A stretch of 64,000 nucleotides of DNA from contig BEHN01000003.1 of NCBI GenBank assembly GCA_002898535.1, forward strand, positions 192,952 to 256,951, given 5' to 3'. Positions within the stretch are counted from its first letter, which is position 1, and each line of letters opens with the position of its first letter. Origin of the DNA: a bacterium HR11 (GTDB lineage: Bacteria; Acidobacteriota; HRBIN11). Position numbers and translations under genes: made by a program. The notes under the pieces were generated by a model. The model worked only from the letters and a program-made list of their open reading frames with translations, was not told the origin of the DNA and searched no databases. Positions 1,863 to 60,377 of this stretch are shown in pieces.

Positions 1863-2134
1863 ATCCGGTGCTGGGTCGTGAGTGTCCGGTATTGGGTCTT
1901 GGGTTACAATCAAACCCAACACCTGACGCCCAGCGCCTAACACCTAAGACCCGATACCTGACACCCAACACCGAGTTTATCGACTCTCAAGTGGGTCCAT
2001 TATAATGGGATGCGGGTCTCAGGGTAAGGGTGCAATCCGTATTCGGTGCCGGATGTTCGGGGCAGGGGACTCAGGTAGGCCCACTTTTACACCTCCTAAC
2101 CTGAACACCGGCTCTTCGTCCTGTGAGGAGGCGC

Positions 2135-3124
2135 ATGAAGCTGGAAGTCCCGCATTACATTCGAGTCCCGGCCAGCGTCGGGAACGTCGGACCCGGCTTT
2201 GACGCCCTGGGGTTAGCCCTGCAGTTTCACCTGACGGTCTTCGTCGAGCCGGCCTCTGAGTGGCAGGTCACCGTCGAGGGCGAGTCGGTCGAAGACCTGG
2301 CGGCCGACGAGACGAATCGAGTCGTCCAGATGGCCCGTCTGGCGGCGGAACGCTGGAAGGTCCAGCTCCCGCCGCTTCGGGTCGAGATTTTCAACGAGAT
2401 CCCCGTCCAGCGGGGCTTGGGCGGGAGTGGCGCATCGGCCCTGGCCGGATTCGCCCTGGCGAGCCTGTTCCGACGAGCCCAGACCCAGACTCAGGACTAC
2501 CTGAACCTGGCCGCTGAGGTCGAGGGCCATCTGGATAATGTGGCGGCGTCTCTCTTGGGCGGTCTGGTCGCCTGCTACTATGCCTCGGACGGTCGGCTGT
2601 ATGCGCTGTCCGGTCGCGTGCCCCGGCCCGTCCACGTGTTAAGTCTGTGGCCCCCGTGGAAGATGGAAACGGCGAAGATGCGGCGGGTCCTGCCGGAGAC
2701 GTATCCCCGGGACGTCGTCGTCCGCCAGCTTCAGCGGGTCACGGCCATCCTGGCCTACTGGCAGGAGCATGACGACGTGCCCCCGAAGGACTTCTTCTAC
2801 GACGAGGTCCACCAGCCGTATCGGCTGGAAAAGATGCCGGAGGTCCGGCGGGTCATCGACCTGGCTTCTTCGATGGGCCTGCCCGCCCTTCTGTCGGGGG
2901 CCGGGCCGGCCGTCGCCGTCCTGACGACAGACGCCGCCGCGGCGACGGCGCTCCTGGAGAGACTCGCCCGCGAGCGGACTTATCGGTCCTGGTCGTGGCG
3001 CTTCGTGCGTGTAGACCGCCGGGGCCTGGTCGTCCGGCCCTACCGGCCCCTCATGAAGAAACGCCTCCTGGAGGCCATCCAGACGTCTCGGCCCGTCACC
3101 GACACGAAGGTCCCGGCGGCCTGA
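2135..3124 (+). CDS. thrB: Homoserine kinase (GHMP kinase family)
   Basis: VPASVGNVGPGFDALGLAL motif and GHMP ATP-binding region. ATG at 2135 lies 5 nt after GAGGAGG; the tool's start at 2123 is a GTG. Confidence 0.8.
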   Translation: MKLEVPHYIRVPASVGNVGPGFDALGLALQFHLTVFVEPASEWQVTVEGESVEDLAADETNRVVQMARLAAERWKVQLPPLRVEIFNEIPVQRGLGGSGASALAGFALASLFRRAQTQTQDYLNLAAEVEGHLDNVAASLLGGLVACYYASDGRLYALSGRVPRPVHVLSLWPPWKMETAKMRRVLPETYPRDVVVRQLQRVTAILAYWQEHDDVPPKDFFYDEVHQPYRLEKMPEVRRVIDLASSMGLPALLSGAGPAVAVLTTDAAAATALLERLARERTYRSWSWRFVRVDRRGLVVRPYRPLMKKRLLEAIQTSRPVTDTKVPAA

Positions 3125-3137
3125 AGCTTGCGAAGTC

Positions 3138-4280
3138 TTACGGGGCCTCCAGGGCTTGGCGGAGGTCGGCGATCAGCGTTTCGGCCGGCTCGATGCCGAT
3201 GGACAGCCGTACCAGGTTGGGACCGATCCCGAGACGCTGTCGGATCGTATCGTCGACGTGCAGATGAGAGGTCGTCACTGGCTGGGTCACCAGCGAGTCC
3301 ACGCCGCCCAGGCTGGCGGCCCGGTGGAAGACCGAGAGACGGTCGATCAGGGCCTGGGTCGCCGCCATGTCGCCGTCATAAGCGAAGCTGACCATCGTGC
3401 CGAAGGCCCGCATCTGCGCCCGAGCGACGGTATGGTCCGGATGCGACGGCAGGCCGGGGTAGAAGACCTGCCGGACACGGGGGTGGTCGGCTAAGAAGCG
3501 GGCGACCTGAAGGGCCGTCTCGCACTGGTGGAAAACCCGCAGGGCCAAGGTCTTCAGGCCCCGGTGGACCATGAAGGCGACCATAGGGTCCATGACGCCG
3601 CCCAGGAGCTTCCGCATGTCCCATATCGGACGGAGCCAGTGACGAAGGCCGACGACAAAGCCGCCCATCACGTCGTGGTGCCCGCCGAGGGCCTTCGTGG
3701 CGCTGTGGACGACTAAGTCAAAGCCGAACATGAGGGGCTGTTGCAGGACGGGCGTGGCGAACGTGTTGTCGATGACGGCCAGGGCGCCGACCTGGTGGGC
3801 CGCCTCAGCGATCCGTCGGAGTGGCAGAACCCGTAAGGTCGGGTTCGTCGGCGACTCGACGTACACGACCTGCGGACGGGTCTCTCGGATCAGGTCCGGC
3901 GTCAGCTCGTCGGGGTCGGCGAAGGTGACCCGAATGCCCCACCGGGGGAGGACGTCGGTCAGGAGCTCGACGGTCCCGCCGTACAGGGTGCTCAAGGCCA
4001 AGACGTGGTCGCCCTGCCGGAGGAAAGCCAACAGCGTCGTCGAGATGGCGGCCATACCGGAGGCGAAGGCGAGGGCGTCTTCGCCGTTCTCGAGGGCCGC
4101 CACGGCTTCCTCGACGGCCCGGACGGTCGGGTTGTCCCACCGAGTATAGATCGGCTCGGCGGGTGTCCCTGTCTCAAACCGTCGGGTCGCCGCTCGGGCC
4201 GCCTCGACGAGTTCTTCGGACCGGTCGAACTCGAAGGTCGCCGACCACCAGACGGGTGGATGGAGTGGACGTCCAGCCAT
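3138..4280 (-). CDS. Cys/Met-metabolism PLP-dependent enzyme (cystathionine gamma-synthase / O-acylhomoserine sulfhydrylase family)
   Basis: ...VYVESPTNPTLRV...DNTFATP...VVHSATKALGGHHDVMGG... (PLP lysine in SATK). Real start MAGRPLHPP at 4280 follows GGAAGGAGGA; the 264 nt upstream in the ORF call is translation of a repeat element. Confidence 0.75.
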   Translation of the reverse strand: MAGRPLHPPVWWSATFEFDRSEELVEAARAATRRFETGTPAEPIYTRWDNPTVRAVEEAVAALENGEDALAFASGMAAISTTLLAFLRQGDHVLALSTLYGGTVELLTDVLPRWGIRVTFADPDELTPDLIRETRPQVVYVESPTNPTLRVLPLRRIAEAAHQVGALAVIDNTFATPVLQQPLMFGFDLVVHSATKALGGHHDVMGGFVVGLRHWLRPIWDMRKLLGGVMDPMVAFMVHRGLKTLALRVFHQCETALQVARFLADHPRVRQVFYPGLPSHPDHTVARAQMRAFGTMVSFAYDGDMAATQALIDRLSVFHRAASLGGVDSLVTQPVTTSHLHVDDTIRQRLGIGPNLVRLSIGIEPAETLIADLRQALEAP

Positions 4281-4301
4281 GGGGGATCCTCCTTCCCATA
4301 G

Positions 4302-4740
4302 CAGAGCCGTGCGGGAGGTGAGAAGTGCGATGGGAAGCGGAAAGGGCACCTCCACGAAAGCACGATTTTTCAAACATTCGGCAGATGGGCAAGTGGGCAG
4401 ATGGGCAGATAGGCAGGTGGGCAGGTCGGCAGATGGGCAGATGGGCATTTGGCAGGTGGGCAGGTCGGCAGATAGGCAGGTGGGCAGGTCGGCAGATGGG
4501 CAGGTCGAGAGACGGGCGTCGATCCTCGGAACACCGGCCGTCATGCCGGGGGCTTCCGGAGAGAGCCCGCCGTCCTGCGGGCGTCATCTTCATGAACCGC
4601 CCGTCCTGGCCGGGTCATCCGGAGGAAGCTTGAAACATCGAGATCGCCGGACCATCGTTTTCCCTGATAGCAACCGCATTTCTCCCACCCAAACAGCTCT
4701 GATAGCAGAGCCGTTCGGTTCGTGAAAACCCGCATGGATT
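4302..4740. mobile_element. Composite MITE-like repeat element, copy A (~440 bp), with ~24-bp imperfect terminal inverted repeats and an internal heptamer array (GGCAGAT/GCAGGTG)n at 4375-4515
   Basis: Inverted, ~85-90 % similar copy at 31739-32024. Ends cagagccgtgcgggaggtgagaa / tttctcccacccaaacagctctg are inverse complements. No ORF with transposase features. Confidence 0.6.
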
Positions 4741-4746
4741 CGGCTT

Positions 4747-4828
4747 TATTGGCTCATGGGTCATAGCTCATGGCTCATAGTCCCATGAGCTATCAGCCAT
4801 GAGCTATGAGCCAATAGGGGCCAGGACC
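4747..4828. repeat. Long imperfect palindrome built from (GCTCATG)n heptamers (family 4), upstream of clpC
   Basis: ttggctcatgggtcatagctcatggctcatag | catgagctatcagccatgagctatgagccaa; related copies at 12962-13130 and 43962-44050. Confidence 0.55.
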
Positions 4829-4973
4829 CATGAGGCGATGAGCCCATCTTCATTCCTGCATCCCGTATCCCGTGGCCCCGTCAAGTCGTCGGCCGACCGC
4901 CTGGGGACGGGTCGCGTCGTGGGTTCGGGGCCCAGCGTCTATGGGTCCGTCCCCTGCTCGTCGGCCGGGCAAC

Positions 4974-5002
4974 TTGACCTCTCGACCCGATGTGGCTATG
5001 TT
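4974..5002 (+). promoter_or_regulatory. Putative sigma-70 promoter of clpC (TTGACC-17-TATGTT)
   Basis: Hexamers at 4974-4979 and 4997-5002, 33 nt before the clpC ATG. Confidence 0.3.
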
Positions 5003-5035
5003 ATCCAGGGACATGGATATTGGGAAGCGGGCATC

Positions 5036-9841: not shown

Positions 9842-9870
9842 TTGGGGAGGAGATGAACCTGCTATATAAT
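9842..9870 (+). promoter_or_regulatory. Putative sigma-70 promoter of the skp-fabZ-lpxA operon (TTGGGG-17-TATAAT)
   Basis: ttgggg 9842-9847, 17-nt spacer, tataat 9865-9870, about 125 nt before the skp ATG. Confidence 0.3.
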
Positions 9871-9996
9871 GGGAGGCCCCTATTTTGTCCCTGGCGGGTG
9901 AATCCCAACCGGCGTGCGAAAGGAGGGGGTCATCCCTGCCGGGACGGCGGTCCTGGGCGGTAGACCCAGGTCGATTTTGTCCAGGAGGTGATTCGT

Positions 9997-11079: not shown

Positions 11080-11842
11080 TGCCACGGCCCGGGTCGCCCC
11101 GACGGCCGAGCTGGCCGATGGGGTCGTCGTGGGCCCGTATTGCATCATCGGCCCGCAGGTACGCATCGGGGAGGGGACCGAACTCCGGAGTCACGTCGTC
11201 ATCGACGGGGTCGTGACGATCGGACGGCAGAACGTCATCTATCCCTTTGTCACCATCGGCTTGGAACCCCAGGACGTCAAGTACGGGGGCGAACCGACCC
11301 GGGTCGAGATCGGCGACCACAACGTGATCCGGGAATTTGTGTCCATCCACCGGGGGACGCCTGGGGGCCGGGGGGTGACGACCGTCGGGAATCATGTATT
11401 CCTAATGGCGTATGCCCATGTCGCCCATGACTGTCAGGTCGGAGACTATGTCATCATGACGAATGCCGCCTCCCTGGCGGGGCACGTCGTCGTCGAAGAC
11501 CACGCCGTCATCGGGGCCTTCAGCGGCATCCATCAGTTTTGTCGGGTGGGCCAATATAGCTTTATCGGCGCCTTCTCGGCCGTCAGTCAGGACGTCCTCC
11601 CCTTTGCGAAGGTCGCCGGCAATCGGGCGCGCGTGTACGGGGTCAACACCCTCGGTCTCCGGCGGGGGGGCTTCCCGACCGAGGTCATCGACCTGATCAA
11701 GCGGGCGTTCATCCTCCTGCTACGGTCCCGTCTACCTATCCCGGAGGCCCTGCGACGGATCCGGACCGAGCTTCCGCCTCATCCGGAATTGGAGGCCTTG
11801 TGTCGCTTCGTCGAAACCTCCCAGCGAGGGATCGTGCAATGA
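11063..11842 (+). CDS. lpxA: Acyl-ACP--UDP-N-acetylglucosamine O-acyltransferase LpxA
   Basis: Left-handed hexapeptide repeats ([35 protein letters not shown]...). Start MGVRIDA at 11063 overlaps the fabZ 3' end by 17 nt. Confidence 0.85.
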   Translation: MGVRIDATARVAPTAELADGVVVGPYCIIGPQVRIGEGTELRSHVVIDGVVTIGRQNVIYPFVTIGLEPQDVKYGGEPTRVEIGDHNVIREFVSIHRGTPGGRGVTTVGNHVFLMAYAHVAHDCQVGDYVIMTNAASLAGHVVVEDHAVIGAFSGIHQFCRVGQYSFIGAFSAVSQDVLPFAKVAGNRARVYGVNTLGLRRGGFPTEVIDLIKRAFILLLRSRLPIPEALRRIRTELPPHPELEALCRFVETSQRGIVQ

Positions 11843-12816
11843 AAATTCGTGTGGCCGTCATCGGCGTCGGGTACCTGGGTCAACACCACGCCCGGGTCTT
11901 TGCCGGCTTGCCGGACGTCGAACTGCGGTACGTCGTGGATATCATTCCCGAGCGGGCGTATACCATCGCCGAGCAGTATGGCGCCATTCCCTTGGAGGAC
12001 TACCGGGCCGTCCCCGTCTCGGAGATCGACGCCGTCAGCATCGTGACCCCGACGACGACCCACTACGAGATCGCCCTTCACTTCCTTCGGTGTGGCGTGG
12101 CGACTTTCGTGGAGAAGCCCCTCACGATGACCTCCCAGCAGGCCCTCCACTTGGTCGAGGAATCCCAGCGGACCGAGACGCCCCTCTTCGTCGGGCACAT
12201 CGAGCGCTTTAACCCCGTGGGGTCCCGGTTTCCCGTCCTCCGAGACGCCGAGTCGCCGGTCTTCATCGAGATTCATCGGGTCCACCCCTTCGTCCCCCGG
12301 GGGACCGACGTCGACATCGTCATGGACCTCATGATCCACGACCTGGACCTCCTGCTGGCCCAAGTCGGCCGGCCGCCTCAGATTCTGGATGCCGTCGGCA
12401 TCCCTGTCGTCACCCACCAGATCGACGCCGCCAGCGTGCGCCTCCAATGGGACCACCTCCGGGTCAACCTCGTCGCCAGTCGGGTCAGCCACATGCACAC
12501 CCGGCGGTGGATGATCTTCGCCGCCGGCCGGTACGTCTCGTTGGATTTCCTCCACCGACAGGTCACCCAAATCCAGATGGACGAGACCCACCCGGGTCAC
12601 CTGGTCATCCAGGACGTCCGATGCGACAGTCCGAAAGAACTCCTATGGATGGAGCTTCAAGCCTTTGCGCAGGCTGTCCGACGGGGCTACGCCGTGCCGC
12701 CCCTGGCGACCGGTCCCGAGGGCCTGGCGGCCATCCGGCTGGCCGAGCAGATCCGGGCCTCGATGGAACAGGTCCGCCATCCGGACCTGACGCCCTGGGT
12801 CATGACGGCCGTATAG
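11839..12816 (+). CDS. Gfo/Idh/MocA-family NAD-dependent oxidoreductase, operonic with lpxA (GnnA-like candidate)
   Basis: MKIRVAVIGVGYLGQHHARVF... Rossmann N-terminus. ATG overlaps the lpxA stop (caATGAaa). Confidence 0.7.
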   Translation: MKIRVAVIGVGYLGQHHARVFAGLPDVELRYVVDIIPERAYTIAEQYGAIPLEDYRAVPVSEIDAVSIVTPTTTHYEIALHFLRCGVATFVEKPLTMTSQQALHLVEESQRTETPLFVGHIERFNPVGSRFPVLRDAESPVFIEIHRVHPFVPRGTDVDIVMDLMIHDLDLLLAQVGRPPQILDAVGIPVVTHQIDAASVRLQWDHLRVNLVASRVSHMHTRRWMIFAAGRYVSLDFLHRQVTQIQMDETHPGHLVIQDVRCDSPKELLWMELQAFAQAVRRGYAVPPLATGPEGLAAIRLAEQIRASMEQVRHPDLTPWVMTAV

Positions 12817-49410: not shown

Positions 49411-49492
49411 GGTTGTAAGACACAAGATAAGCCCCGATTCGCCATCGGGCCGTTCCGCCATTCGGCAATCCGCCATCCGATAGGTCATCCCC

Positions 49493-49981
49493 ATGTCGGA
49501 GACCCGTTTCAAAATCGGTGAACTCGCCCGGCACGCGGGCGTGACGCCCCGGACGATTCACTACTACGTCCACATCGGCCTCTTGCCGCCGCCCAAGGGA
49601 GGGGGCCGGTACAGCTACTACACCGAGGAGCACCTCCGGCGTCTCCGCATCATCCGTCAACTCCAGCGTTACTTCATCCCCCTCCGTCGCATCAAGGAGG
49701 CCCTGCGTCTGAAGTCTTTAGAAGAACTCGAAGAAGAAGTCGCCCGGGCCCACCGCGTGGCCCACGAGTACCGGGATGCCCTGCGGACCGCCATACCGAT
49801 GACGCCCGAGCGGACGACCTGGGAACGCATCGTCCTCCAGGACGGCCTGGAGCTTCACTACCGTCTCCCGATGGCCACGGGCGTCCAGCAGTTCATCGAG
49901 TTCATCCTCCAGCACGCCCGGACGTGGCCCCCGGCGGAGCCGTCGGAAGGACCCGATGCAGGCGGGGGAGTCAGGGGGTAG
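49493..49981 (+). CDS. MerR-family transcriptional regulator
   Basis: FKIGELARHAGVTPRTIHYYVHIGLLPPP HTH and coiled-coil dimerisation helix. Confidence 0.75.
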   Translation: MSETRFKIGELARHAGVTPRTIHYYVHIGLLPPPKGGGRYSYYTEEHLRRLRIIRQLQRYFIPLRRIKEALRLKSLEELEEEVARAHRVAHEYRDALRTAIPMTPERTTWERIVLQDGLELHYRLPMATGVQQFIEFILQHARTWPPAEPSEGPDAGGGVRG

Positions 49982-50054
49982 GGATGGGGAATGGGAATTA
50001 GGCATTGGGAATGAGGAATGGGGAATGGGGGATGGGGAGTGGGATGAGGCATCG

Positions 50055-50681: not shown

Positions 50682-53600
50682 TCACGGTCCGTACAGCAAC
50701 AGGTTAAAGGCCCGGGTGATGAAGACGGCCATCTGGGCCCGGTTGACGGGGTCCAGCGGACAGTAGGTCGTCGCCGTGCACCCGCCGGTGACATTGTTCG
50801 CCCACATCCAGTGCACATGCCGACAGTAGAACACCCCGTCGGGCACGTCCGTGAAGTGGTTGGGCGCGCTGTCGGTGCAGTCCCAGCTCCCGCCCGGGCC
50901 GCTCCCGGACAGCGGCGGGTCCGTCCCCAAGACGGCCCGGCTGATAAAGATGGCCATCTGGGCCCGGTTGACGGGGTCCAGCGGACAGTAGGTCGTCGCC
51001 GTGCACCCGCCGGCGATGTTGTTGGCCCACATCCAATGGACATGGGGACAGTAGAACACCCCGTCGGGCACGTCCGTGAAGTGGTTGGTCGCATTGTCCG
51101 TGCAGTCCCAGCTCCCGCCCGGACCGCTCCCGGACAGCGGCGGGTCCGTCCCCAAGACGGCCCGGCTGATAAAGATGGCCATCTGGGCCCGATTGACCGT
51201 CTGAAGCGGGCAGTAGTCGCTGGCCGTACAGCCGCCCGTCACGCCCCGGTGCAACAGCGTCTCCACCGCCTTGTAGTAAAACACATTCGGCGCCACGTCG
51301 GCAAAGCTCGGCCCGATGTGGAGCGTCCACGTCTTGGGCGGCTGGCTTCCGCTTCCTACGACGCTCACTGTCTCATCGAACGTCACGTCCCTGTGGCCCG
51401 TCCCCGTCCGGGTCCCCGTGATGGCGTAGCAGTCGCCCGTAGCCGTCTGGCAGTCGGCCGTCCCCCCGGCCGGGATCGTCCCGTAGGCGGCCGCCGCGTC
51501 CGTCAGCGACGCCACGACCCCCGGCGGGTCCACCACGTTGGAAGCATTGCCATTCAATATATGTGAGGTGTTGTCGTTATTCCTCCAGGCCGGCACGACC
51601 GTCACGGCTTCGCCCGAGTCCCACACGCCGTTGCCGTCGGGGTCCCCCGCGATCGCCAGGCCCGTCCCCGCCAGCGGAGGGGGCGCCTCATAAGAGCCGA
51701 TGTCGCACACGGCGACGCCGTCGCCATCGCCATCCTGGGGGCGGGTGACGCCGTTTTGCGATTGGTTGTTCACAGGTACGTTATTACAGGTGGTGTTATC
51801 GCCGGCATCAATCGCCGGGCTATCGGGATTAAGCGGGAAGTAGGCCGGCGAGCCGGTCGGTGTGCCAAGCATAGGGTCCACGCCGATGACGTTGCCGTTG
51901 ACGCCGTTGACAAGGCCGCAGGCGTGGGCGCTGTCTTCGATGAGGTTGTTCTTGGAGGTAGGGTCGACAGTTCCGCCGAGCTGCCCGCAGTCCCCACCGC
52001 TCGTGCTGTTGGCGATGATGGTGTTCTTGAGCGTGACCATACCCGAAGTAAGGTCGATGCCGCCGCCGCGGATGCCGGCGCTATTTCCACTCACCGTACA
52101 ATTCGTCATCCTGAGGGTGGCCCAACTACCAAAGCCGGTCTTGGCATTGGCAATGCCGCCGCCGTAGCCGCCGGCGCTATTTCCACTCACCGTGCAGTTT
52201 GTCATCGTGAGCACGCCTGAATTCGAAATGCCGCCGGCGACGTAGACGACGCTATTTCCACTCACCGTACAATTTTCCATCGTGAGCGTGCCTTTATTAT
52301 TCGAAATGCCGCCGCTGCCACCGCCGGCGCTATTTCCACTCACCGTGCAATTTTTCATCGTGAGCGTGCCGTCATTGTAAATGCCGCCGCCCCCGCCGCC
52401 GCTGCCGGTGCCATTTTCACTTACCGTGCAGTTTGTCATCGTGAGCGTGCCTGAATTCGAAATGCCGCCGCCGGCGCCGCCGGCGATATTTCCACTCACC
52501 GTGCAGTTTGTCATCGTGAGCGTGCCTGCATTCAAAATGCCGCCGCCGGAGTCAAAGCTGGTGAGACCGTTTGCTATCGTCAGGCCAGATATCTGCACCG
52601 TCTTACCGCTGCTTATGTTGAACACCCTCGTCGCATTATTCCCGCTCACGGTCAACTGATCCGCACCAGGCCCAACGATCGCCAGATTCTTGTCTATCAA
52701 AAGCTCGCCCAGCGTGGAATCAAGCGTGATCGTGCCGGTCACGGTGATCTGAATCGTGTCCCCATCACCGGCAGCAGCTATCTCTCCCCTCAGGCATTGC
52801 GAGCAATTACTCGCATCCGATGTACTACTCACCGTACGCAAATTCCCTACCCCCAAAACATATTCATAAGAACCTACAAAACCTCCCTGGTCCTTCGCAA
52901 CAACCGTGAAAACAAATATACCTGCCTGATCAGGTGTCCCCGAGATCACCCCACCCGTGGAAAGGCTCAGCCCATTCGGCAGGTTAGAGCCAGAAGCCAG
53001 TGAAAAATTGTATGGAGAAGTACCCCCAACTGCAGAGATGCTCTGGTTGTAATTCTGACCAATGATCGCAAATGGCAGTGAGGTCGGGGAAAGGAAAATA
53101 TTTGCCTCCGACGCCCCCATGTCAACCGTGTTGTTGACTACTCTCGCAGAGCCGCGCTGGTCCGTCGTGAGCGGGTTCCCGTCGGGGTCTTTGGCCAGAT
53201 CGTTGCTACCGCGATCAATTGCAGGGCTATTACCCAGCAAGGCGTGTGTCTGTGTGGGCCCACCGTAGTTCCCCAGCGGCAGCAGCTTGGGATCTTGCCC
53301 CGTGATGTAATGGGTTGAGCCTGGTGGAAGCGATGTACCGGTTGTGTCCTTGATCAGGTTGAAGTCGCCGGAGCTGACCGGCCCATCGATGTCTGGATGA
53401 CCGCCGTTTGACACGTTGTTTGCCACTATGCTGTTGTTGAGGTTGAGCGTGCCTACATTGTGAATGCCGCCGCCGCCGCTGGATGTATTTCCACTCACTG
53501 TGCAGTTTGTCATCGTGAGCGTGCCTGCATTGAGAATGCCGCCGCCGGCGCCGGCGCTATTTCCACTCACCGTGCAATTTGTCATCGTAATCGTGCCAAC

Positions 53601-54263
53601 GTTTTCAATGGCGCCGCCGCTACCGGCGCTGTTGCCGGCGAAGGTGCTGTTGATAACGGTCAGTATGCTGTTGTTTCGGATGGCGCCGCCGCCGGTGGCG
53701 CTATTGCCGGCGAAGGTGCTGTTGATGATCTTCATAACGCCGACGTTATAGATGCCGCCGCCGAGGATGTGGGCGCTGTTACCGGCGAAGGTGCTGTTGG
53801 TGACCGTCACCGTGCCGGCGTTGGAGATGCCGCCGCCGTAATCGAAGGAGCTACCCTTTCCATTTGCTATGGTGATGTTTTGCAGGGTAAGATTTGCGCC
53901 GCTGTTTACAACCATGACCCGCACGCTGCCCCCGCCGCTGATAGCGATCGTCCCACCGCCGTTAATCGTCAGCGTTCCCGCGCCGCTCACGATGTTTGGT
54001 AAGGTGGAGCCAAGCGTAATCGTCCCACCCCCTGTGATGAAGATGATGGTATCGTCGTCGGGGCTTCCGGCGAAGCAGTCCGCGTTGGCAGGCGTGTTGT
54101 TTGCCGCCAGGATGGCCTCGCGCAGGGTGCACTGGAAGTCGTTGTTGGTGTTATCCGCCAGCGAGGTGACGATGTAGACCGCCGCATAGGCCGACCGCAT
54201 GCTTTGCCCGGACAGCCACAGTGACACGACGAGCAGAGTGAGAAGAGAGAAAGTTCTTTTCAT
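50682..54263 (-). CDS. Secreted 1193-aa surface protein: signal peptide, long right-handed parallel beta-helix (PbH1) repeat region, Ig/lectin-like middle, three C-terminal SLH-like Cys-containing repeats
   Basis: Start MKRTFSLLTLLVVSLWLSG after GAGGTGA; the tool's start at 54638 would lie upstream of the promoter. PbH1 motifs GGGIxNxGTLTMTNCTVSGNSAGG repeat more than 15 times. C-terminal repeats FTDVPDGVFYCPHVHWMWANN..GGCTATTYCPLDPVNRAQMA.FI.RA occur three times. Confidence 0.7.
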   Translation of the reverse strand: MKRTFSLLTLLVVSLWLSGQSMRSAYAAVYIVTSLADNTNNDFQCTLREAILAANNTPANADCFAGSPDDDTIIFITGGGTITLGSTLPNIVSGAGTLTINGGGTIAISGGGSVRVMVVNSGANLTLQNITIANGKGSSFDYGGGISNAGTVTVTNSTFAGNSAHILGGGIYNVGVMKIINSTFAGNSATGGGAIRNNSILTVINSTFAGNSAGSGGAIENVGTITMTNCTVSGNSAGAGGGILNAGTLTMTNCTVSGNTSSGGGGIHNVGTLNLNNSIVANNVSNGGHPDIDGPVSSGDFNLIKDTTGTSLPPGSTHYITGQDPKLLPLGNYGGPTQTHALLGNSPAIDRGSNDLAKDPDGNPLTTDQRGSARVVNNTVDMGASEANIFLSPTSLPFAIIGQNYNQSISAVGGTSPYNFSLASGSNLPNGLSLSTGGVISGTPDQAGIFVFTVVAKDQGGFVGSYEYVLGVGNLRTVSSTSDASNCSQCLRGEIAAAGDGDTIQITVTGTITLDSTLGELLIDKNLAIVGPGADQLTVSGNNATRVFNISSGKTVQISGLTIANGLTSFDSGGGILNAGTLTMTNCTVSGNIAGGAGGGISNSGTLTMTNCTVSENGTGSGGGGGGIYNDGTLTMKNCTVSGNSAGGGSGGISNNKGTLTMENCTVSGNSVVYVAGGISNSGVLTMTNCTVSGNSAGGYGGGIANAKTGFGSWATLRMTNCTVSGNSAGIRGGGIDLTSGMVTLKNTIIANSTSGGDCGQLGGTVDPTSKNNLIEDSAHACGLVNGVNGNVIGVDPMLGTPTGSPAYFPLNPDSPAIDAGDNTTCNNVPVNNQSQNGVTRPQDGDGDGVAVCDIGSYEAPPPLAGTGLAIAGDPDGNGVWDSGEAVTVVPAWRNNDNTSHILNGNASNVVDPPGVVASLTDAAAAYGTIPAGGTADCQTATGDCYAITGTRTGTGHRDVTFDETVSVVGSGSQPPKTWTLHIGPSFADVAPNVFYYKAVETLLHRGVTGGCTASDYCPLQTVNRAQMAIFISRAVLGTDPPLSGSGPGGSWDCTDNATNHFTDVPDGVFYCPHVHWMWANNIAGGCTATTYCPLDPVNRAQMAIFISRAVLGTDPPLSGSGPGGSWDCTDSAPNHFTDVPDGVFYCRHVHWMWANNVTGGCTATTYCPLDPVNRAQMAVFITRAFNLLLYGP
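50704..51330. repeat. Three ~222-bp near-identical tandem repeats encoding the C-terminal SLH-like modules
   Basis: gataaagatggccatctgggcccggttgacggggtccagcggacagtaggtcgtcgccgtgcacccgccgg recurs at ~50716, ~50943, ~51163. Confidence 0.75.
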
Positions 54264-54267
54264 GGTT

Positions 54268-54477
54268 TCACCTCGTCTGCGCCGGACCTGGACAGCCGGG
54301 AGGGCCAGCGACCGTCCATGTCGGGGGGATGCCGCCGACCTTGAAATCCTCCTGCAGGAGGGTGTCAGGCGCCATCGTGGCGACCGCCATGAAGCCGGCA
54401 TGGCCGGCCATGACCAGGGCCAGGAGGCTCGCCAGGCTCCATGGGGTCCATGGATGGCATCGGAGGTGGATGCGCAT
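54268..54477 (-). CDS. Putative 69-aa membrane protein between the sigma-54 promoter and the beta-helix gene
   Basis: ATG 54477 after ACGAGGTCGG; hydrophobic WSLASLLALVMAGHAGFMAVATMA; its TGA overlaps the RBS of the downstream gene. Confidence 0.35.
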   Translation of the reverse strand: MRIHLRCHPWTPWSLASLLALVMAGHAGFMAVATMAPDTLLQEDFKVGGIPPTWTVAGPPGCPGPAQTR

Positions 54478-54621
54478 GGTCCGACCTCGTGACGGGCGGG
54501 ATGCGGGGCATCCAGCCCGGGTGGGGTTGGGTCCATGCGGTTTCCCCGGATGGGGGAGTGACCCACCGACCGCGATTCACTCCTCTTGGGTGTGGGGGAT
54601 GGGGGGCGGCGGGGGGATTCA

Positions 54622-54637
54622 AGCAAGAGGCGTGCCA
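54622..54637 (-). promoter_or_regulatory. Sigma-54 (-24/-12) promoter
   Basis: Minus strand reads ttTGGCACGcctcTTGCTtgaa = TGGCACG-N4-TTGCT, an exact match to the sigma-54 core consensus. Confidence 0.65.
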
Positions 54638-54693
54638 AAGGGCGGGGGTGGGGTGGGGAGCGGAGGCGGGCGGGGGGCGGGGGCGGTCCCGGT

Positions 54694-54745
54694 TGTCACG
54701 GTGACAGGGGGTGTGACGTCACATGGGACAGCCTGTGACATGTCA
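54694..54745. promoter_or_regulatory. Three palindromic candidate EBP-binding sites (upstream activator sequences)
   Basis: TGTCAC-g-GTGACA (54694-54706), TGTGACGTCACA (54712-54723), TGTGACATGTCA (54734-54745); 60-110 bp upstream of the -24 element; the last overlaps the regulator stop codon. Confidence 0.5.
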
Positions 54746-57700
54746 TTCGGCGTGGGGGTCGGGGGGTTTGTCTTTTCCGCGCAGGCCCCAGCGGGCCAGT
54801 TTGCGGTAGAGGGTCATGCGGCTGAGGCCGAGGCGGCGGGCGGCCTGGGAGATATTGCCGTGGGTTTCTTCCAGGGCGGCCAGGAGGCGACGCTTTTCGG
54901 CGTCGGGGTCGGGTTCGCCGGGGGCGGCGGGGGCCGGGGGCCGCAGGTAGGCCGGGAGGTCCTCGACCCGGAGGACGGGGCCGGGGCAGTGGACGAGGGC
55001 GGACTCGACGACGTTGCGGAGTTCCCGGACGTTGCCGGGCCATGGATAGTCGAGCAGGGCGTCCAGGACGGCGCGGCTGATCTCGACGGGCGGGCGGTCC
55101 CGCTGTTGGGTCCATTCTCGGGCGAAGTGGACGGCCAGGAGGGGGATGTCGGTGCGGCGTTCCCGCAGGGGCGGCAGGTGGATTTCGGCGACCCGGATGC
55201 GGTACAGGAGGTCCTGTCGGAAGCGGCCGGCGATGACTTCCTGGTCGAGGTCTCGATGGGTGGCGGCGAGGATGCGCACGTCGATCTTCCGGGGGCGGGT
55301 CTCGCCGAGGCGGATGATTTCTCGTTCCTGGAGGGTCCGGAGGAGGTTCCGTTGGACGTCCAGGGGCATGTCGCCGATTTCATCCAGGAAGAGGGTCCCC
55401 CCGTGGGCCGATTCGAAGAAGCCGACCTGGTCGGTGACGGCGCCCGTGAAGGCGCCCTTGCGGTGGCCGAAGAGCTGGCTACTCAGGACGGATTCGGTCA
55501 GGCCCCCGCAGTTGAGGGCGATGAAGGGACGGTCCCGGCGGGGGCTGAGGTCGTGGAGGGCGCGGGCGACGAGTTCCTTGCCCGTGCCGGTCTCGCCGAC
55601 GATGAGGACGGTCGTGTCGAAGGGGCCGAGTTCTTCGATCTGGCGGTAGACCTGGAGCATCGGGGGGCTCTGGCCGACGAGGCCGTAGCGGGCGTAGGTG
55701 GCCTCCGACATGCGGTAGGGGTCGTAAATTTCGGAGATGTCGTAGAGGAAGAGGAGGTGTCCCCCGGGGTGGGTCGGGTCGGCCTGGATTTCGATGTCGG
55801 TCCAGTAGCGGTGGCCGTCGGGGCCGACGAAGCTGACGGAGGTCCTGGGAGCCGCCTCGGCGGGCGACGTGAGGAGGTGCCGCAGGGCCCGCAAGTCCTC
55901 GGGGGCGAAGGGGAGGGCGGTCTCCCAAGCTTGACCCTGGAGGGCCTCGGCGGATCGGCCGAGGAGTCGTTCGGCGACTCGGTTGGCGAAGACGACGCGG
56001 CCTTGGGCGTCGAGGGTCAGGACGCCGACCCGGAGGCGATGGAAGACCATGAGCAGGTCTTCATGGGATTGACGGAGGTCGGCGTGGGCCTGGGTGAGTT
56101 CTTCATGGGATTGAGTGAGCCGGACGTTCATCTCGGCGAGGGCTTCCTTTTGAGCCTGGACCTCGGCCGTGCGTTGGGCCACCGTGGTTTCCAGGAGGCG
56201 GGCCCGGCGCGTGAGGGCATGCAGGCGCCATCGAATCAGGCCGGTGATGAGGCCGGTCAGGCCGAGGGCGCACAGGACATAGAAGTAGCCGGTCTGGTAC
56301 AGGTAGGGCCGCAGGGTGAGGTCCAGGGCGGCCCCGGTTTCGTTCCAGAGGCCGTCGTCGTTGCTGGCCTGGACCCGGAAGCGGTAACGGCCGGGGGGCA
56401 CGTGAGTGTAGTAAGCGGACCGTCGGGTCCCGGCCTCGACCCAGTCGGCGTCGTAGCCCTCCAGGCGATAGCGGAAGCGGACTTTCAGGGGGTTCCGCAG
56501 GCTCAGGGCGGTATAGCGGACCTCCAGGTCGTTTTGGCCCGGCGGGAGGACGACGGCCCCGTTAGGGGGGACGGAGAGGCCCCGGGCCGTCCGGAGGGCC
56601 TCGATGTAGACGGGCGGGGGAACGGGATTGTCGGCCCGGGGGTCGATACGGGCCAGGCCCCGAAGGGTCGGGAACCAGAGGATGCCGTCGGGGGTCTTCG
56701 CGCCGGCGGGTTGACTGCCGCCGGCGCATTCGGCCAGGGTCAGGCCGTCCTGGGTGTCGTACAGCACGGCCGGGACGGTCGGAGCGGCGCCCGTGGCGAC
56801 GGCCTCCAGGGCCGATGGGTCGACCCGGAAGATGCCCTTGTTGCTACAGACCCAGAGGCGGCCCCGGTCGTCTTCGAGGACCTGGGTGATGAAGTCGTCG
56901 GGCAGGCCCGTGGCCGTCGTAAAGGCGTACCAGCGGCCGTTCCGGTAGAGGTCCAGGCCGCCGCCGTAGGTGCCGACCCAGACCCGACCGGCGGCGTCGA
57001 CGTGGACGGCCCGGACGTGGTCGTGGGAGAGCCCGTTCCGGGTCGTGAAGTTCTCGAAGCGGCCGTCGGCCCATCGGCTGAGGCCCCCGCGGGTCCCGAC
57101 CCAGAGGGCGCCGGTGCGGTCCTGGGTGATGAAACGGACCCAGTCATGGACGAGGCCGTCCGACGTCCGATAGACCCGGCGGACGGCATCGTTTTCGAGG
57201 ACGGCCAGACCCGCCTCGGTCCCGACCCAGATTCGGCCGGCCGTGTCTTCGTAGAGGGCCAGGACGGCATCGCTGGGGAGGCCCTGCCGCATCGTCAGAC
57301 GAACGATTTCGAAGGCGGCGGTCCGACCCCCGCCGGCGGGGCGGGCTGGACGGGGACGAAGCCGGACGAGGCCCAGGCCGCCAACCCAGAGGTCGCCCGA
57401 GCGGGTCCGCAAGAGGGACCATATACATCCGCCGGGCAGGCCGTCCCGTTCGGTCCAGTGCTCGCTACGGCCGTCGGGCCTCCAATGGACCAACCCCCCG
57501 CAGGTCAGGCCCAACCAGAGGCCGTCCTCGTCGTCGCTGACGACGGGGACGAAGACGTCGCCCGGGAGGCCGTCCGCCTGCCCAAAGGTCCGTACACGGG
57601 GGACCCGTCCCTGATAGAGGCCCTCGCCGTCGGTCCCGACCCAGAGGTTACCCTCCCGGTCTTCCAAGAGGGCTCGGACGGTCCGACGGCGAACGCGGTC

Positions 57701-58654
57701 GTCGGGGCTCGCGGGTTCCCATCGGCCGTCGGTCCAGCGGAACAGGCCGGCCTGCCATGCCCCGGCCCAGAGACGGCCCCGGCGGTCCTCATAGACGGTC
57801 CGGACCAAGGCCGGGAGACCCTGCTCGGGACCGTAGCGAGTCCACCGACCCTCGTGATAGCGGAGGAGGCCGAGGCCCTCGGTAGCGAACCACCAGGCCC
57901 CGGCCCGGTCCTGGTAGATCTGCCATACGAGGGGCGCCGGGCCATAGGGGAAGGGCAGGACCGTCCATTGGCCGTCCCGATAGACATACAGACGGTCGCC
58001 GACGCCCCACCAGAGGCCGCCCGCCGTATCGAGGTTCTGAAATCCGATGGGGCCTTGCCGGATTTCCGGCCGGATCGGGAGGGCGTGAAAACGGCCCTGC
58101 CGATAGTAGGCCGGCCCCTGGGCGGTCATGACCCAGACCGTCCCTCGAGGGTCGACGGCGACGGCGTAAGCGTTCCTATCGGGGAGGCCCTCGGTCGTCG
58201 AGAAGGCCTCGAAGCGGCCGGCGGCATAGCGGTAGAGGCCGGCATCCAGGGTGGTCACCCAGAGGGCGCCCGTCGGGTCTTCCACCAGGGCCAGGACTTG
58301 GGTCCCCCGCAGGACCGGCGTGTTCGTCGGGCGGAAGACGGTAAACTGTACGCCGTCAAAGCGGGCTAAGCCCCCGAAGGTCCCGACCCAGAGGTAGCCG
58401 TCGCGGGTCTGCAGGAGGGCCGTGACCGAATTCTGGGGCAGGCCAGCGCCGGTCCCCCAAGCGGTCCAGAGGTAGCGGTCCGGTGCGACGTCGCCGTCTG
58501 ACGGGGGCCGGGGGATCGGGGCCGCCGCGATGCCCGAGGATAGAAGGAGTCCCTGCCCCAGCCAGGCGTACAAGACAACAAAAATGATCCGAGGGGTGAC
58601 GGGTCCAGTGTACCGGTGGGCGGTCCCACCAGTGTCAGACTCTGCGGGGCCCAT
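54743..58654 (-). CDS. Membrane-anchored sigma-54-dependent transcriptional activator with extracytoplasmic double beta-propeller (Reg_prop) plus Y_Y_Y sensor, TM, coiled-coil, PAS, AAA+ (GAFTGA) and Fis-type HTH
   Basis: N-terminal TM RIIFVVLYAWLGQGLLL; repeated ...DGYLWVGTFGGLARFDG... propeller blades; Y_Y_Y block VRFRYRLEGYDADW...GRYRFRVQA; second TM; sigma-54 module VGETGTGKE...RKGAFTGA...GTLFLDEIGD; C-terminal ISQAARRLGLSRMTLYRKL. No HisKA/REC. Confidence 0.85.
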   Translation of the reverse strand: MGPAESDTGGTAHRYTGPVTPRIIFVVLYAWLGQGLLLSSGIAAAPIPRPPSDGDVAPDRYLWTAWGTGAGLPQNSVTALLQTRDGYLWVGTFGGLARFDGVQFTVFRPTNTPVLRGTQVLALVEDPTGALWVTTLDAGLYRYAAGRFEAFSTTEGLPDRNAYAVAVDPRGTVWVMTAQGPAYYRQGRFHALPIRPEIRQGPIGFQNLDTAGGLWWGVGDRLYVYRDGQWTVLPFPYGPAPLVWQIYQDRAGAWWFATEGLGLLRYHEGRWTRYGPEQGLPALVRTVYEDRRGRLWAGAWQAGLFRWTDGRWEPASPDDRVRRRTVRALLEDREGNLWVGTDGEGLYQGRVPRVRTFGQADGLPGDVFVPVVSDDEDGLWLGLTCGGLVHWRPDGRSEHWTERDGLPGGCIWSLLRTRSGDLWVGGLGLVRLRPRPARPAGGGRTAAFEIVRLTMRQGLPSDAVLALYEDTAGRIWVGTEAGLAVLENDAVRRVYRTSDGLVHDWVRFITQDRTGALWVGTRGGLSRWADGRFENFTTRNGLSHDHVRAVHVDAAGRVWVGTYGGGLDLYRNGRWYAFTTATGLPDDFITQVLEDDRGRLWVCSNKGIFRVDPSALEAVATGAAPTVPAVLYDTQDGLTLAECAGGSQPAGAKTPDGILWFPTLRGLARIDPRADNPVPPPVYIEALRTARGLSVPPNGAVVLPPGQNDLEVRYTALSLRNPLKVRFRYRLEGYDADWVEAGTRRSAYYTHVPPGRYRFRVQASNDDGLWNETGAALDLTLRPYLYQTGYFYVLCALGLTGLITGLIRWRLHALTRRARLLETTVAQRTAEVQAQKEALAEMNVRLTQSHEELTQAHADLRQSHEDLLMVFHRLRVGVLTLDAQGRVVFANRVAERLLGRSAEALQGQAWETALPFAPEDLRALRHLLTSPAEAAPRTSVSFVGPDGHRYWTDIEIQADPTHPGGHLLFLYDISEIYDPYRMSEATYARYGLVGQSPPMLQVYRQIEELGPFDTTVLIVGETGTGKELVARALHDLSPRRDRPFIALNCGGLTESVLSSQLFGHRKGAFTGAVTDQVGFFESAHGGTLFLDEIGDMPLDVQRNLLRTLQEREIIRLGETRPRKIDVRILAATHRDLDQEVIAGRFRQDLLYRIRVAEIHLPPLRERRTDIPLLAVHFAREWTQQRDRPPVEISRAVLDALLDYPWPGNVRELRNVVESALVHCPGPVLRVEDLPAYLRPPAPAAPGEPDPDAEKRRLLAALEETHGNISQAARRLGLSRMTLYRKLARWGLRGKDKPPDPHAE

Positions 58655-58814
58655 CGTCCGGCTCCGGCCATCGGAACGCAGGCCACATCCTTGACCCCGC
58701 CCCGGTGGGTGCGCCGATAGCATAAGGGGAATGGCGGACGGGAGCAAGATGCGAGATGCGACCCCTCAGGGCGGGGTCCCGGCAGGGGTCCCAGGTCCCG
58801 AGTCCGGCAACGGA

Positions 58815-60128
58815 CTATCGACCTGTTTCGGTTGTAGGCAGGGGCGCCTGCACTCCTGGAGTCAGCCGTTCCAAGCCGTCCAGGTAGGGCCGCAGGGCCG
58901 GCGGGATGAGGACCGAGCCGTCGGCCTGCTGGTAGTTCTCCAGGAGGACGACGATAGTCCGTCCGACGGCCAGGCCCGAGCCGTTCAGCGTGTGGACGTA
59001 CCGGGCCTTGCCGCCCCCGGCCGGACGGTACCGCAGGCCCATCCGCCGGGCCTGAAAGTCCCCGCAGTTCGAGCAAGACGAGACCTCCAGCCACCGCTGT
59101 TGGCTCGGGAGCCACGCCTCGATGTCGTACGTCTTGGCCGCCGCAAAGCCCATGTCGCCCGTGCACAGGAGCATGACCCGGTAGGGGATGCCCAGCCGCT
59201 GGAGGACCGTCTCGGCGTGCCGGGTCAGCGTCTCCAGGTCGTCGTAGGACCGCTCCGGCGTCGTGATGTGGACGAGCTCGACCTTATCGAACTGATGCTG
59301 ACGGATGAGGCCCTTGCTTTCCTGGCCGTACGTACCGGCCTCCCGTCGGAAGCAGGGGCTCCAGCAGACGAGCCGGATCGGTAGGTCCTTCTCCGACAGC
59401 GTCTCCTCCCGGAAGAGGTTCGTCACGGGGACCTCGGCCGTCGGGATCAAAAACAGGTCGTCAGACGGGACGGCGTAGAGGTCCGCCTCGAACTTCGGGA
59501 GCTGGCCCGTGCCGGTCATCGTCGCCCGGTTGACGAGATAGGGGACCCAGACTTCGTGGTAGCCGTGTTCCCGGATGTGGAGGTCCAGCATGAACTGGGC
59601 GAGGGCCCGGACGAGTCGGGCGCCCCAGCCCTTGAACAGGGGGAAACGGGCGGCGGCGACCTTGGCCGCCCGCTCCAGGTCTAAGATCCCTAAGAAGCGG
59701 CCGAGGTCCACGTGGTCCCGGACGGGAAACGAAAAGGACGGGATCTCCCCCCAGCGGCGGACCTCGACGTTATGCGAGGCGTCCGGTCCGACGGGGACGG
59801 ACTCATGGGGGACGTTGGGGACCCGCAGGAGCCAGGCCTCGACCCAGGCGTCCAGCTCGGCGACGCGGGCGTCCAGCTCCTCGATGCGGGCGCTGATGCG
59901 CTGATTCTCCTCCAGGAGGTCCGTCGGGTCCTGGCCGGCCTGCTTGAGGCGACCAATCTGACGGGTCAGTTCGTTTCGACGGTGCTTGAGGGCCTCGACC
60001 TCTTGAAGGAGCGACCGGCGACGGGCGTCCTTCTCGAGGAATTCGTCGAGGCCGACGTCCACGCCCCGTTCGGCCATCTTGCGGCGGACGTATTCGACGT
60101 TTTCCCGGACCCACCGGAGGTCTAACAT
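58815..60128 (-). CDS. serS: Serine--tRNA ligase
   Basis: N-terminal coiled-coil MLDLRWVRENVEYV...; class II motifs (...FRREAGTYGQ...GLIRQHQFDKVE...); GGTGG before the ATG. The tool's 60227 start is repeat read-through. Confidence 0.9.
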   Translation of the reverse strand: MLDLRWVRENVEYVRRKMAERGVDVGLDEFLEKDARRRSLLQEVEALKHRRNELTRQIGRLKQAGQDPTDLLEENQRISARIEELDARVAELDAWVEAWLLRVPNVPHESVPVGPDASHNVEVRRWGEIPSFSFPVRDHVDLGRFLGILDLERAAKVAAARFPLFKGWGARLVRALAQFMLDLHIREHGYHEVWVPYLVNRATMTGTGQLPKFEADLYAVPSDDLFLIPTAEVPVTNLFREETLSEKDLPIRLVCWSPCFRREAGTYGQESKGLIRQHQFDKVELVHITTPERSYDDLETLTRHAETVLQRLGIPYRVMLLCTGDMGFAAAKTYDIEAWLPSQQRWLEVSSCSNCGDFQARRMGLRYRPAGGGKARYVHTLNGSGLAVGRTIVVLLENYQQADGSVLIPPALRPYLDGLERLTPGVQAPLPTTETGR

Positions 60129-60147
60129 CGTCCACCACCCAGGCAGG

Positions 60148-60200
60148 CGATAGGGAAGAGGATGCAGGATGCAAGATACAAGATGCAAGATACGGGATGC
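60148..60200 (-). repeat. Family-3 (CYTGCAT)n array oriented with serS, ending ~20 nt before its RBS
   Basis: Minus reading catcttgcatcccgtatcttgcatcttgtatcttgcatcctgcatcc. Confidence 0.55.
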
Positions 60201-60377
60201 AAGATGAGACCATGGACCATAGACCATGGACCATGGACTCTGGGATAGCCTCGGAAGATTCTCTTTGCCTCACCCCGAGGGGAGGAAATCCAGCGGGCCT
60301 GGATGCCCTCGGAGCTCCAGCCCGGTCTATCGTCCGTGGTCCGTGGTCCATGGTCTACTTATCCATGAGGCCACGCG

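Follow-up and report, generated by a model that had tools for sequence, protein, structure and literature searches.

The spacers between genes in a 64,000-nucleotide stretch of the bacterium HR11 genome are rich in tandem arrays with units of 7 or 8 nucleotides. This stretch (contig BEHN01000003.1 of GenBank assembly GCA_002898535.1, positions 192,952 to 256,951), referred to below as the window, probably samples an extreme, heptamer-dominated case of a genome rich in long simple sequence repeats (LSSRs), with spacers that are mosaics built from three types of element. The first is a family of gene-proximal arrays, termed A, with the unit CYTGYAT. The second comprises families B (ATGAGCY) and C (GACCATR), whose arrays form hairpins. 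The third consists of the octamer families G (GGCAGRTN) and H (TTCGGGAR) together with a dispersed element that we call X.

The 7/8-nucleotide periodicity is real and confined to non-coding DNA. A scan of lags 1 to 30, using windows of 35 nucleotides and requiring at least 80% self-identity, detected arrays only at lags 7, 8, 14, 16, 21, 24 and 28, and detected none in 10 shuffled versions of the sequence that preserve dinucleotide composition. The lag-7 identity of the pooled intergenic DNA is 0.344 (z = 16.9 relative to shuffles), with additional signals at lag 8 (z = 7.0), lag 14 (z = 9.5), lag 21 (z = 5.1) and lag 24 (z = 5.4), and a 3-base periodicity is the sole signal that autocorrelation yields for coding DNA. 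Strict arrays occupy 1186 of the 9083 non-coding bases (13%) compared to 73 of the 54917 coding bases (0.13%). By lag, the non-coding coverage amounts to 774 nt at lag 7, 412 nt at lag 8 and 116 nt at lags 5, 6, 9, 10 and 11 combined. Likewise, the non-coding entries among the 135 rows returned by Tandem Repeats Finder (TRF) mostly have periods of 7, 8 or the multiples 14, 16, 21 and 24. The higher-order periods 14, 21 and 24 outscore 7 or 8, as is expected if duplication copies several units together. Adjacent units differ more often by transitions (119) than by transversions (79).

A preliminary description of this stretch had proposed that unrelated heptamer and octamer families make up nearly every spacer longer than 100 bp. 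Every array that it listed was recovered by TRF at or near the position given, with the exception of the one at 1905-1980, which is too degenerate for TRF and was recognized by its lag-7 identity (0.381 versus a background of 0.254 +/- 0.03). TRF places the others at, for example, 4380-4505 (15.9 copies), 20341-20381, 29816-29862, 35705-35741, 36018-36046, 41876-41931, 43469-43593, 49132-49193 and 49984-50043 (8.7 copies). One supposed heptamer, (GGCAGAT)n, proves to be the octamer GGCAGRTN with a TRF period of 8. Most spacers of at least 100 bp do hold an array (about 17-18 of 23), but arrays cover only 13-24% of the intergenic DNA, depending on the threshold. Repeats of all kinds account for 37% of this DNA, and for 72-86% of some of the largest spacers. 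Nor are the families unrelated, given that many of them are components of shared, dispersed composites and are present as inverted pairs.

Family A arrays upstream of gene starts

The methionyl-tRNA synthetase (MetRS) encoded in the window is 97% identical to that of JZ-1.bins.94 (L002), 92% identical to that of SKYB104 (L003), both of which are hot-spring metagenome-assembled genomes (MAGs) of Acidobacteriota, and 75% identical to that of a third MAG (L004). Beyond these three, identity falls to ~54% (Thermoanaerobaculia and other Acidobacteriota). Judged from these protein sequences, the host is a thermophilic Acidobacteriota lineage and not a cyanobacterium. The preliminary description had likewise argued against a cyanobacterium, and its estimate of a GC content above 65% agrees with the value of 65.9% for the window. 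The comparisons described below involve 27 kb of syntenic sequence from L002 and L003, both of which are derived from short-read MAGs.

All seven of the strict family A arrays (7/7) are intergenic and aimed at the start of the downstream gene on the same strand (strict scan; binomial p=0.016). In six of the seven, the end of the array is separated from the ATG by 27-39 nt. The seventh array (43821-43848) is separated from its gene start at 44104 by a 232-bp composite with the order X-B-X', which is described below.

The array upstream of metG (13170-13204, plus strand) carries 5 units that end 33 nt before the ATG, and both its position and its orientation are retained in L002 and L003. The array upstream of hemE, encoding a URO-D protein (15856-15897, plus strand), carries 6 units that end 27 nt before the ATG, and the number of units declines from ~6 in the window to ~4 in L002 and ~3 in L003. 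Two further arrays lie within the palindromic spacer between the divergent genes thiD and cydA (17821-18088; inverted repeats I3, I8 and I15; fold z = -11). Its order is a minus-sense A array (17836-17884), a C array with the unit GACCATR (17899-17931), a 66-nt loop, the complementary array C' (17994-18026) and a plus-sense A array (18047-18088). The outer A arrays of this spacer are kept in L002, where the inner arms are replaced by another heptamer pair, GGATTGC. In the thiD array, the gene-proximal units and the Shine-Dalgarno site are identical to those of L002, and the distal part is 23 nt (~three units) longer in the window. An array of 7 units (39576-39624, minus strand; TRF and strict scan) ends 39 nt before the ATG of a methyltransferase gene (38655-39536). 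Finally, the spacer that separates serS from a divergently oriented acyltransferase gene (60162-60360; TRF, inverted repeat I14 and strict A scan) contains an A array (60162-60203) that stops 33 nt short of the serS ATG, followed by a C array (60205-60246), a spacer and a C' array (60324-60360).

Orthologous family A arrays are located upstream of metG, hemE, thiD, cydA and a clpB-like gene in L002, L003 or both. The flanking genes are 84-97% identical to those of these relatives, and the spacer sequence outside the A arrays cannot be aligned. The gene-proximal A units are conserved as strongly as coding sequence. Family A is therefore probably retained, as far as such conservation patterns can indicate, as part of a promoter or leader.

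Some features of the arrays resemble a promoter. In the 7-nt register of family A, a -35-like TTGYAT is repeatedly found 18 nt from a -10-like TATCYT, and this pair was read by eye near the gene-proximal end of 5 of 6 window arrays. Among 72 arrays from sources with a GC content of at least 0.55, the pairing is found 19 times, compared to 11.6 +/- 2.3 in within-array shuffles (p=0.001), and units bearing TAT are concentrated in the last two units of these arrays. This pairing is suggestive only, since a 21-nt slippage super-repeat would give the same correlation.

A stronger proposal would be that (CYTGYAT)n arrays are self-contained microsatellite promoters, in which case the 7/8 register of the other families could come from a shared dedicated process rather than from generic slippage. 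We consider this proposal rather doubtful. If it were true, slippage would add or remove whole promoter units and leave the TTGYAT-TATCYT spacing unchanged, the presence of C or T at the variable positions 2 and 5 of the unit would decide whether the -35 and -10 elements are on or off, and the arrays would represent a general promoter architecture in a high-GC bacterial group.

A conserved GGGACCTGGCAC, which resembles a sigma-54 -24 element, is located just 5' of the metG array (window 13125-13165; L002 ~1835-1860), and TTGCA is present inside the units of this array. The resemblance is probably a coincidence. A link between sigma-54 and the metG array was rejected because the spacing from TGGCAC exceeds the required length by a single base in L002 and by far more in the window, and TGGCAC is also missing from the other A arrays when these are read by eye. 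The sigma-54 gene that the preliminary description had placed in the window is instead a gene for a sigma-54-dependent activator (54743-58654). Promoter-like sites that lack arrays recur at 4974-5002, ~9850-9880, 26089-26120 and 24672-24685. Their motif, TTGAC(A/C)-N17-TAT(A/G)(A/T)T or CTGCTAT(G/A)T(T/A), may mark the local -10 consensus, and the site at 4974-5002 is kept in L003.

Beyond the window, four (YTGYATC) units occur in more than 120 metagenome contigs with GC contents of 33-69%, among the matches listed. In the high-GC contigs of this set, a gene start is located only on the sense side of 13 arrays and only on the antisense side of 2. In the low-GC contigs (L083-L161, GC <0.5), gene starts next to (CTTGTAT)n-type arrays favour the GATACAA side (~13 vs 6). 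A universal polarity of A-type arrays was thus rejected, and because the bias is absent or reversed at low GC, the polarity is specific to lineages rather than a property of the motif.

Palindromes, octamer arrays and element X

B and C arrays are present as abutting or nested inverted pairs. A typical B hairpin, in which (GCTCATR)n abuts (ATGAGCY)n, is located at 4747-4816 and has 32-nt arms that are 84% complementary (I13; fold z = -12). The B hairpins have the ends TATTGG/CCAATA in common. For family C, three copies of a palindrome of ~125 bp that resembles a miniature inverted-repeat transposable element (MITE) align end to end, with terminal inverted repeats TCTCATAAATCCGAC/GTCGGATTTATGAGA. 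Copy 1 (23105-23240) has terminal repeats TCTCATAAATCCGAC/GTCGGATTTATRAGA and (GACCATR)n arms, copy 2 is at 49283-49420 (three-copy alignment, I12 and folding) and copy 3 is at 43318-43445 (three-copy alignment). A separate (GGACCAT)n array (24460-24503, plus strand; TRF 24463-24494, 88% matches) overlies the stop codon of the gene at 23245-24471.

Folding predicts very stable hairpins on either strand in all composites (z = -5 to -13). There is no consistent strand asymmetry of G-U pairs in these hairpins, and for this reason RNA and DNA structures cannot be distinguished. On the basis of their sequences, we interpret the B and C arrays as forming the arms of MITE-like elements that are small, palindromic and non-coding.

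Element X is ~80 nt long, extends from TAGCAGAGCCGTTCGGTTCGTGAGAA to GGGAAGCACGATGTTTCAAAGG and occurs on both strands in at least 17 copies, either complete or partial (nhmmer). Plus-strand copies include those at 4299-4379, 12814-12894, 35627-35706, 35868-35946, 43120-43200 and 43860-43939, among others, and minus-strand copies are located at 25918-25993, 31941-32021, 43588-43667, 44047-44087 and 49202-49275. The stop codon of the upstream gene is often supplied by X, as in the copy at 12814, whose first bases form this codon. The 5' ~25 nt of X are reused as inverted terminal pairs around hairpins or arrays (I22), and one such pair (43863-85/44063-85) is 96% complementary. Many X ends have the form TA(G/A)CAG...CTG(T/A)TA, in which TA could be a target duplication or part of the terminal repeat.

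The octamer arrays of families G and H begin exactly at the 3' end of X. Moreover, different unit types (GGCAGRTN, GGGAYGNA and GGATACG) start at one X 3' junction, TTTCAA(A/G), with copy numbers that vary. X was rejected as a structured RNA because its consensus fold is weak (-3.35 kcal/mol) and has no compensatory pairs. A search of the window against Rfam gave nothing at the gathering score, and a relaxed search of 42900-44200 gave only chance-level hairpin matches (miRNA precursors, and Chloroflexi-1 at 26 bits versus an 80-bit cut-off).

These components combine in several ways. At 4299-4507 (plus strand), X (4299-4379; nhmmer E=3e-16) is followed by a G octamer array of 16 units (4378-4507; TRF period 8 with 15.9 copies at 4380-4505). 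At 12814-13131, X is followed by an octamer array (12894-12927) and a long B hairpin (12965-13131), as determined by TRF, nhmmer, inverted repeats and folding. The opposite orientation is seen at 31900-32021 (minus strand), where a G array (31900-31942) is joined to X (31941-32021; TRF, repeat family D20 and nhmmer). An H array is located at 29808-29865 (plus strand, TRF period 8) and includes a G-quadruplex motif (29836-29862).

Two larger regions are nested mosaics. The first (35627-36046; TRF, nhmmer and I21) begins with X (35627-35706) and a G array (35703-35744) and continues with GATACGR and A-like heptamers (35756-35830), a G' array (~35835-35870), a second X (35868-35946), further A-like units (35940-35970) and a second G' array (36006-36046). 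The second (43318-44087; I1, I22, TRF and nhmmer) contains copy 3 of the C-type element, an H array (43469-43509), a G array (43486-43593), a minus-strand X (43588-43667), the A array at 43821-43848, and then the X-B-X' unit composed of X (43860-43939), a B hairpin (43959-44042) and X' (44047-44087). At 49127-49197 (minus strand), G (CCGACCTG, 3.5 units) is followed by H (CCGAATTC, 4.8 units) with TRF matches of 100% and 93%, and this segment is the H-G composite of 43447-43545 in reverse.

Family E has the degenerate unit CYRAYAC, and ~8 units at 1910-1975 face their complement at 1868-1905 to form a hairpin in a divergent spacer (1868-1975; fold z = -6.4). A degenerate CTRAYAC-type array of the same family (20341-20381, plus strand; TRF period 7, 62% matches) is located in a spacer that is conserved in L002. 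At 41869-41931, (GGTCTNN)n is followed by (CCTGRGA)n beside a pair of X-type terminal repeats (41753-41854; TRF and nhmmer). Family D, (GGGGAAT)n, is represented by ~9 units in a convergent spacer (49984-50046, plus strand; 8.7 copies by TRF at 49984-50043), followed by a GC-rich hairpin, and has G-quadruplex motifs at 49964-49995 and 50020-50043. By a motif-based prediction that requires at least four tracts of three or more G residues with loops of at most 7 nt, families D and H qualify, and families A, B, C and E do not. G-quadruplex formation as the cause of all arrays was rejected, since the window has only a modest excess of such motifs (24 versus 16 +/- 3), which concerns families D, H and E alone.

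The 44 genes of the window were called with a codon-usage model, and they agree with independent calls on contig L001 and with Pfam. They include ordinary housekeeping genes such as bamA, skp, fabZ, lpxA, metG, hemE, thiD and cydA, as well as those for a class II ribonucleotide reductase, leuS, hemCD, gap and serS. No transposase or reverse transcriptase was detected by the Pfam and gene-content survey of the 64-kb window. Several genes have repeats of a different type. The minus-strand gene at 50682-54200, in a region with a GC content of 0.57 that is below the window average, encodes a large beta-helix/SLH-domain protein and has in-frame tandem repeats of 225 nt and 72-75 nt at 50709-51197 and 52152-53838. 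A DUF5666 protein gene has a 243-nt tandem repeat with 2.1 copies (30752-31270), and a gene for an Ig-like-domain protein has a duplicated 300-nt segment with 99% identity and a separation of 540 nt (62227-62526 and 62767-63066). In addition, the GC skew reaches +0.24 at 54001-56000, compared to an absolute value of at most 0.09 elsewhere in the window. In position, the skewed stretch matches a G-rich spacer with GGGG runs (54580-54690) together with the 3' end of the gene for the sigma-54-dependent activator.

Proposed turnover of the arrays and competing explanations

Comparison with relatives, which the preliminary description had proposed as a check, gave a divided result, in that family A is common to L002 and L003 but families B, C, G and H are missing from the 27 kb of syntenic sequence. 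The spacer at 4281-5035 is 755 bp long in the window versus 238 bp in L003, where the whole X-G composite is missing. The segment at 12814-13131 has no counterpart in L002 or L003. Where the window has the C-type element (23093-23244), L002 has an X element instead. Of all the loci searched outside the window, that of the closest relative, L002, was the only one to yield X (11769-11838, minus strand).

Arrays of this type are not restricted to the window. At unselected loci chosen by MetRS, 7/8-nt arrays are present in 18 of 37 Acidobacteriota loci versus 7 of 40 loci of other phyla (Fisher p=0.007), and the array density at the Acidobacteriota loci is about 1/7 of that in the window. In 533 kb of the listed metagenome contigs, there are 251 lag-7 and 58 lag-8 arrays, versus at most 24 at any other lag. 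Among the metagenome matches listed, L117, L099, L151 and L092 have many families in inverted pairs, as in the window. Other MAGs of Acidobacteriota or Armatimonadota have heptamer families of their own (L006, L008, L010 and L013; L009, L022 and L033; L018, L027 and L036; L064 and L068), with the units CCTTCTM, GGGGWCC, GTYGACA and CAGCTGW and the octamer AACCCTAT. Their arrays are often located directly upstream or downstream of metG, and often as inverted pairs.

We propose that the arrays gain and lose 1-3 units at a time, often as blocks of two or three, through replication slippage or unequal exchange, and that they would then diverge through ordinary point mutation. The hemE and thiD arrays do vary between relatives by whole units. 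Family A would consist of old, gene-proximal elements that were kept through speciation, presumably as part of a promoter or leader, with distal units gained or lost as a whole. The composites, in turn, may spread by non-autonomous transposition or by recombination, bringing arrays into new spacers and creating nested palindromes. Nesting of mobile elements would explain the long palindromes between divergent genes without co-evolution of the arms. The elements are considered non-autonomous because the window has only housekeeping genes and no transposase.

Several observations weigh against this combination of slippage, mobility and retention. Slippage is not seen directly, and the sequences from all four runs of the strain are identical. 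Neither a target-site duplication nor, within the window, a cognate transposase was identified, and consequently mobility is argued only from copy number, terminal repeats and presence or absence among relatives. A consensus scan gave no match to a canonical sigma-70 promoter in or next to the A arrays, which is why a function for this family can only be inferred. The proposal also leaves unexplained why 7 and 8 are preferred over 5, 6 and 9-11. Finally, the relatives are short-read MAGs in which hairpin-bearing spacers may be under-sampled, because short-read assemblies tend to break at hairpins.

In a simpler scenario, which we regard as unlikely, all arrays would be purely neutral, microsatellite-like by-products of slippage in place, with neither mobility nor function, and both the polarity and the pairing in inverted orientation would be incidental. 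The differences in unit number between relatives and the transition-biased decay do fit neutral turnover. In favour of this scenario, too, gene starts in the low-GC contigs listed show no sense bias, or if anything an antisense one. Heptamers are also reported to lead the long simple repeats across prokaryotes, at least as this finding is cited in PMC4679880 and PMC4692102. A neutral origin is more difficult to reconcile with the uniform orientation of the A arrays and their distance of 27-39 nt from the ATG, and with the conservation of their gene-proximal units in spacers that are otherwise unalignable. Moreover, identical ~125-bp composites with conserved non-repeat ends at three loci are beyond what slippage in place can produce.

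The opposite scenario, that the arrays are mainly functional sites for a protein or the ribosome (promoter modules, leaders or nucleoid-protein sites) and owe their abundance to selection, is also improbable in our judgement. It draws on the polarity and positional conservation of family A, on the enriched 18-nt TTGYAT/TATCYT pairing and gene-proximal TAT units of high-GC arrays, and on the sense-side preference among the high-GC contigs listed. Precedents are provided by the Vibrio ctx heptads, the TAACTGA repeats of Beggiatoaceae and the upstream regions of Nostoc recF and recO. The same scenario does not readily accommodate families B, C, G and H, which are present or absent among close relatives and are distributed over all types of spacer, even those between convergent genes. 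Even for family A, canonical promoter sequences are lacking in the scan described above, and the correlation between units i and i+3 could stem from 21-nt slippage super-repeats.

The common junction TTTCAA(A/G), at which differing unit types begin with variable copy number, could also be explained by a dedicated templated synthesis, in which a tailing activity resembling that of a reverse transcriptase or a telomerase, for example, extends the 3' end of X by repeats of 7-8 nt. This mechanism seems very unlikely to us, as the window encodes no reverse transcriptase or other candidate enzyme, the A arrays are unattached to X, and one X copy is flanked by arrays on both sides, which fits insertion into existing arrays.

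An assembly or sequencing artefact is effectively refuted. Hairpin centres, arrays and X elements are indeed the places where short-read contigs of the same strain begin or end, as exemplified by L001 (window 13065-23150), both ends of which are hairpin centres, and by L203, which ends at window 4341. However, the independent short-read contigs L001 and L202-L206 (L202 corresponds to window 60210-62267) match the window at 100%, including the internal arrays, and related MAGs hold orthologous arrays. The arrays are thus not artefacts of assembly. Exact-protein look-ups past the window matched nothing but short contigs from this strain, all of which are 100% identical and end in repeats.

Relation to known repeats and significance

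Heptanucleotides were described by Mrazek, Guo and Shah in 2007 as the most abundant long simple repeats of most prokaryotic genomes, and slippage tied to a polymerase contact of ~7 nt was proposed as the cause (as cited in PMC4679880 and PMC4692102). Within these sources, this contact is the only published proposal for a register of 7. The preliminary description had called the amplification mechanism unexplored. Given the 2007 slippage proposal and the published family-level cases, this label does not apply. The short tandemly repeated repetitive (STRR) sequences of cyanobacteria, cited there as the only precedent, are likewise joined by the 2007 LSSRs and by repeats in Xanthomonas, Nostoc, Beggiatoaceae, Chloroflexus (GATAGRA) and the Vibrio ctx locus.

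The arrays of the window share many characteristics with LSSRs, whose units are 5-11 nt long. Both are tandem, intergenic and longer than expected by chance, with 7 nt as the commonest unit length and with lineage-specific units. In both, whole-unit numbers change between relatives and the arrays are kept out of coding DNA. The window differs in its Acidobacteriota host, its strong octamer class and its arrays, which are mostly inverted-paired or attached to dispersed elements. As in the cyanobacterial STRRs and the arrays of Microcystis and Nostoc, there are several intergenic heptamer families per genome, often near start codons or promoters, although the phylum and the units are different. 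The units of STRR1-3 are CCCCAGT, TTGGTCA and CAACAGT. None of these, nor TAACTGA, GGGAATC, GGGGAYT, GATAGRA or TTTTGAT, is present in tandem in the window.

Closer parallels exist for single families. Families D and H resemble the Xanthomonas GGGAATC and Nostoc GGGGAYT repeats (PMC4692102) in being arrays of G tracts with matches to G-quadruplex motifs. Xanthomonas is also reported to have convergent inverted pairs. The units differ, and most families in the window are not G-rich. The TAACTGA direct repeats of marine Beggiatoaceae (PMC4679880) are orientation-specific heptamers just upstream of start codons, like family A, but the unit is different, a single family is dominant there, and the arrays in the window end ~30 nt from the ATG. 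For family A, a role in the promoter and one in the leader are equally plausible. In the ctxAB promoter of Vibrio cholerae, the copy number of (TTTTGAT)n heptads is linked to promoter activity. That case involves a single locus and a known activator, whereas the arrays in the window precede many housekeeping genes and have no known binding factor.

MITEs, repetitive extragenic palindrome doublets forming hairpins (REPINs), bacterial interspersed mosaic elements (BIMEs) and neisserial intergenic mosaic elements (NIMEs) are short, non-coding, palindromic, dispersed, nested and variably present. The elements of the window have these traits in common with them and differ in that their stems are tandem heptamers. 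We found no published description of such repeats in Acidobacteria. The window therefore appears to hold a kind of repeat that is already known and still unexplained, and that is apparently undescribed for Acidobacteriota. The additional features here are the strong octamer class, the location of arrays inside hairpin mosaics, and a polar, conserved, promoter-proximal family.

Because short-read assemblies are interrupted at the centres of hairpin arrays, genomes of this type are fragmented in MAG collections, and their repeats are probably under-reported. The window offers a dense, multi-family test case for the dominance of heptamers, a question that has been open since 2007, and it does so in a genome in which the housekeeping genes metG, hemE, thiD, cydA and serS are located directly downstream of polar arrays.

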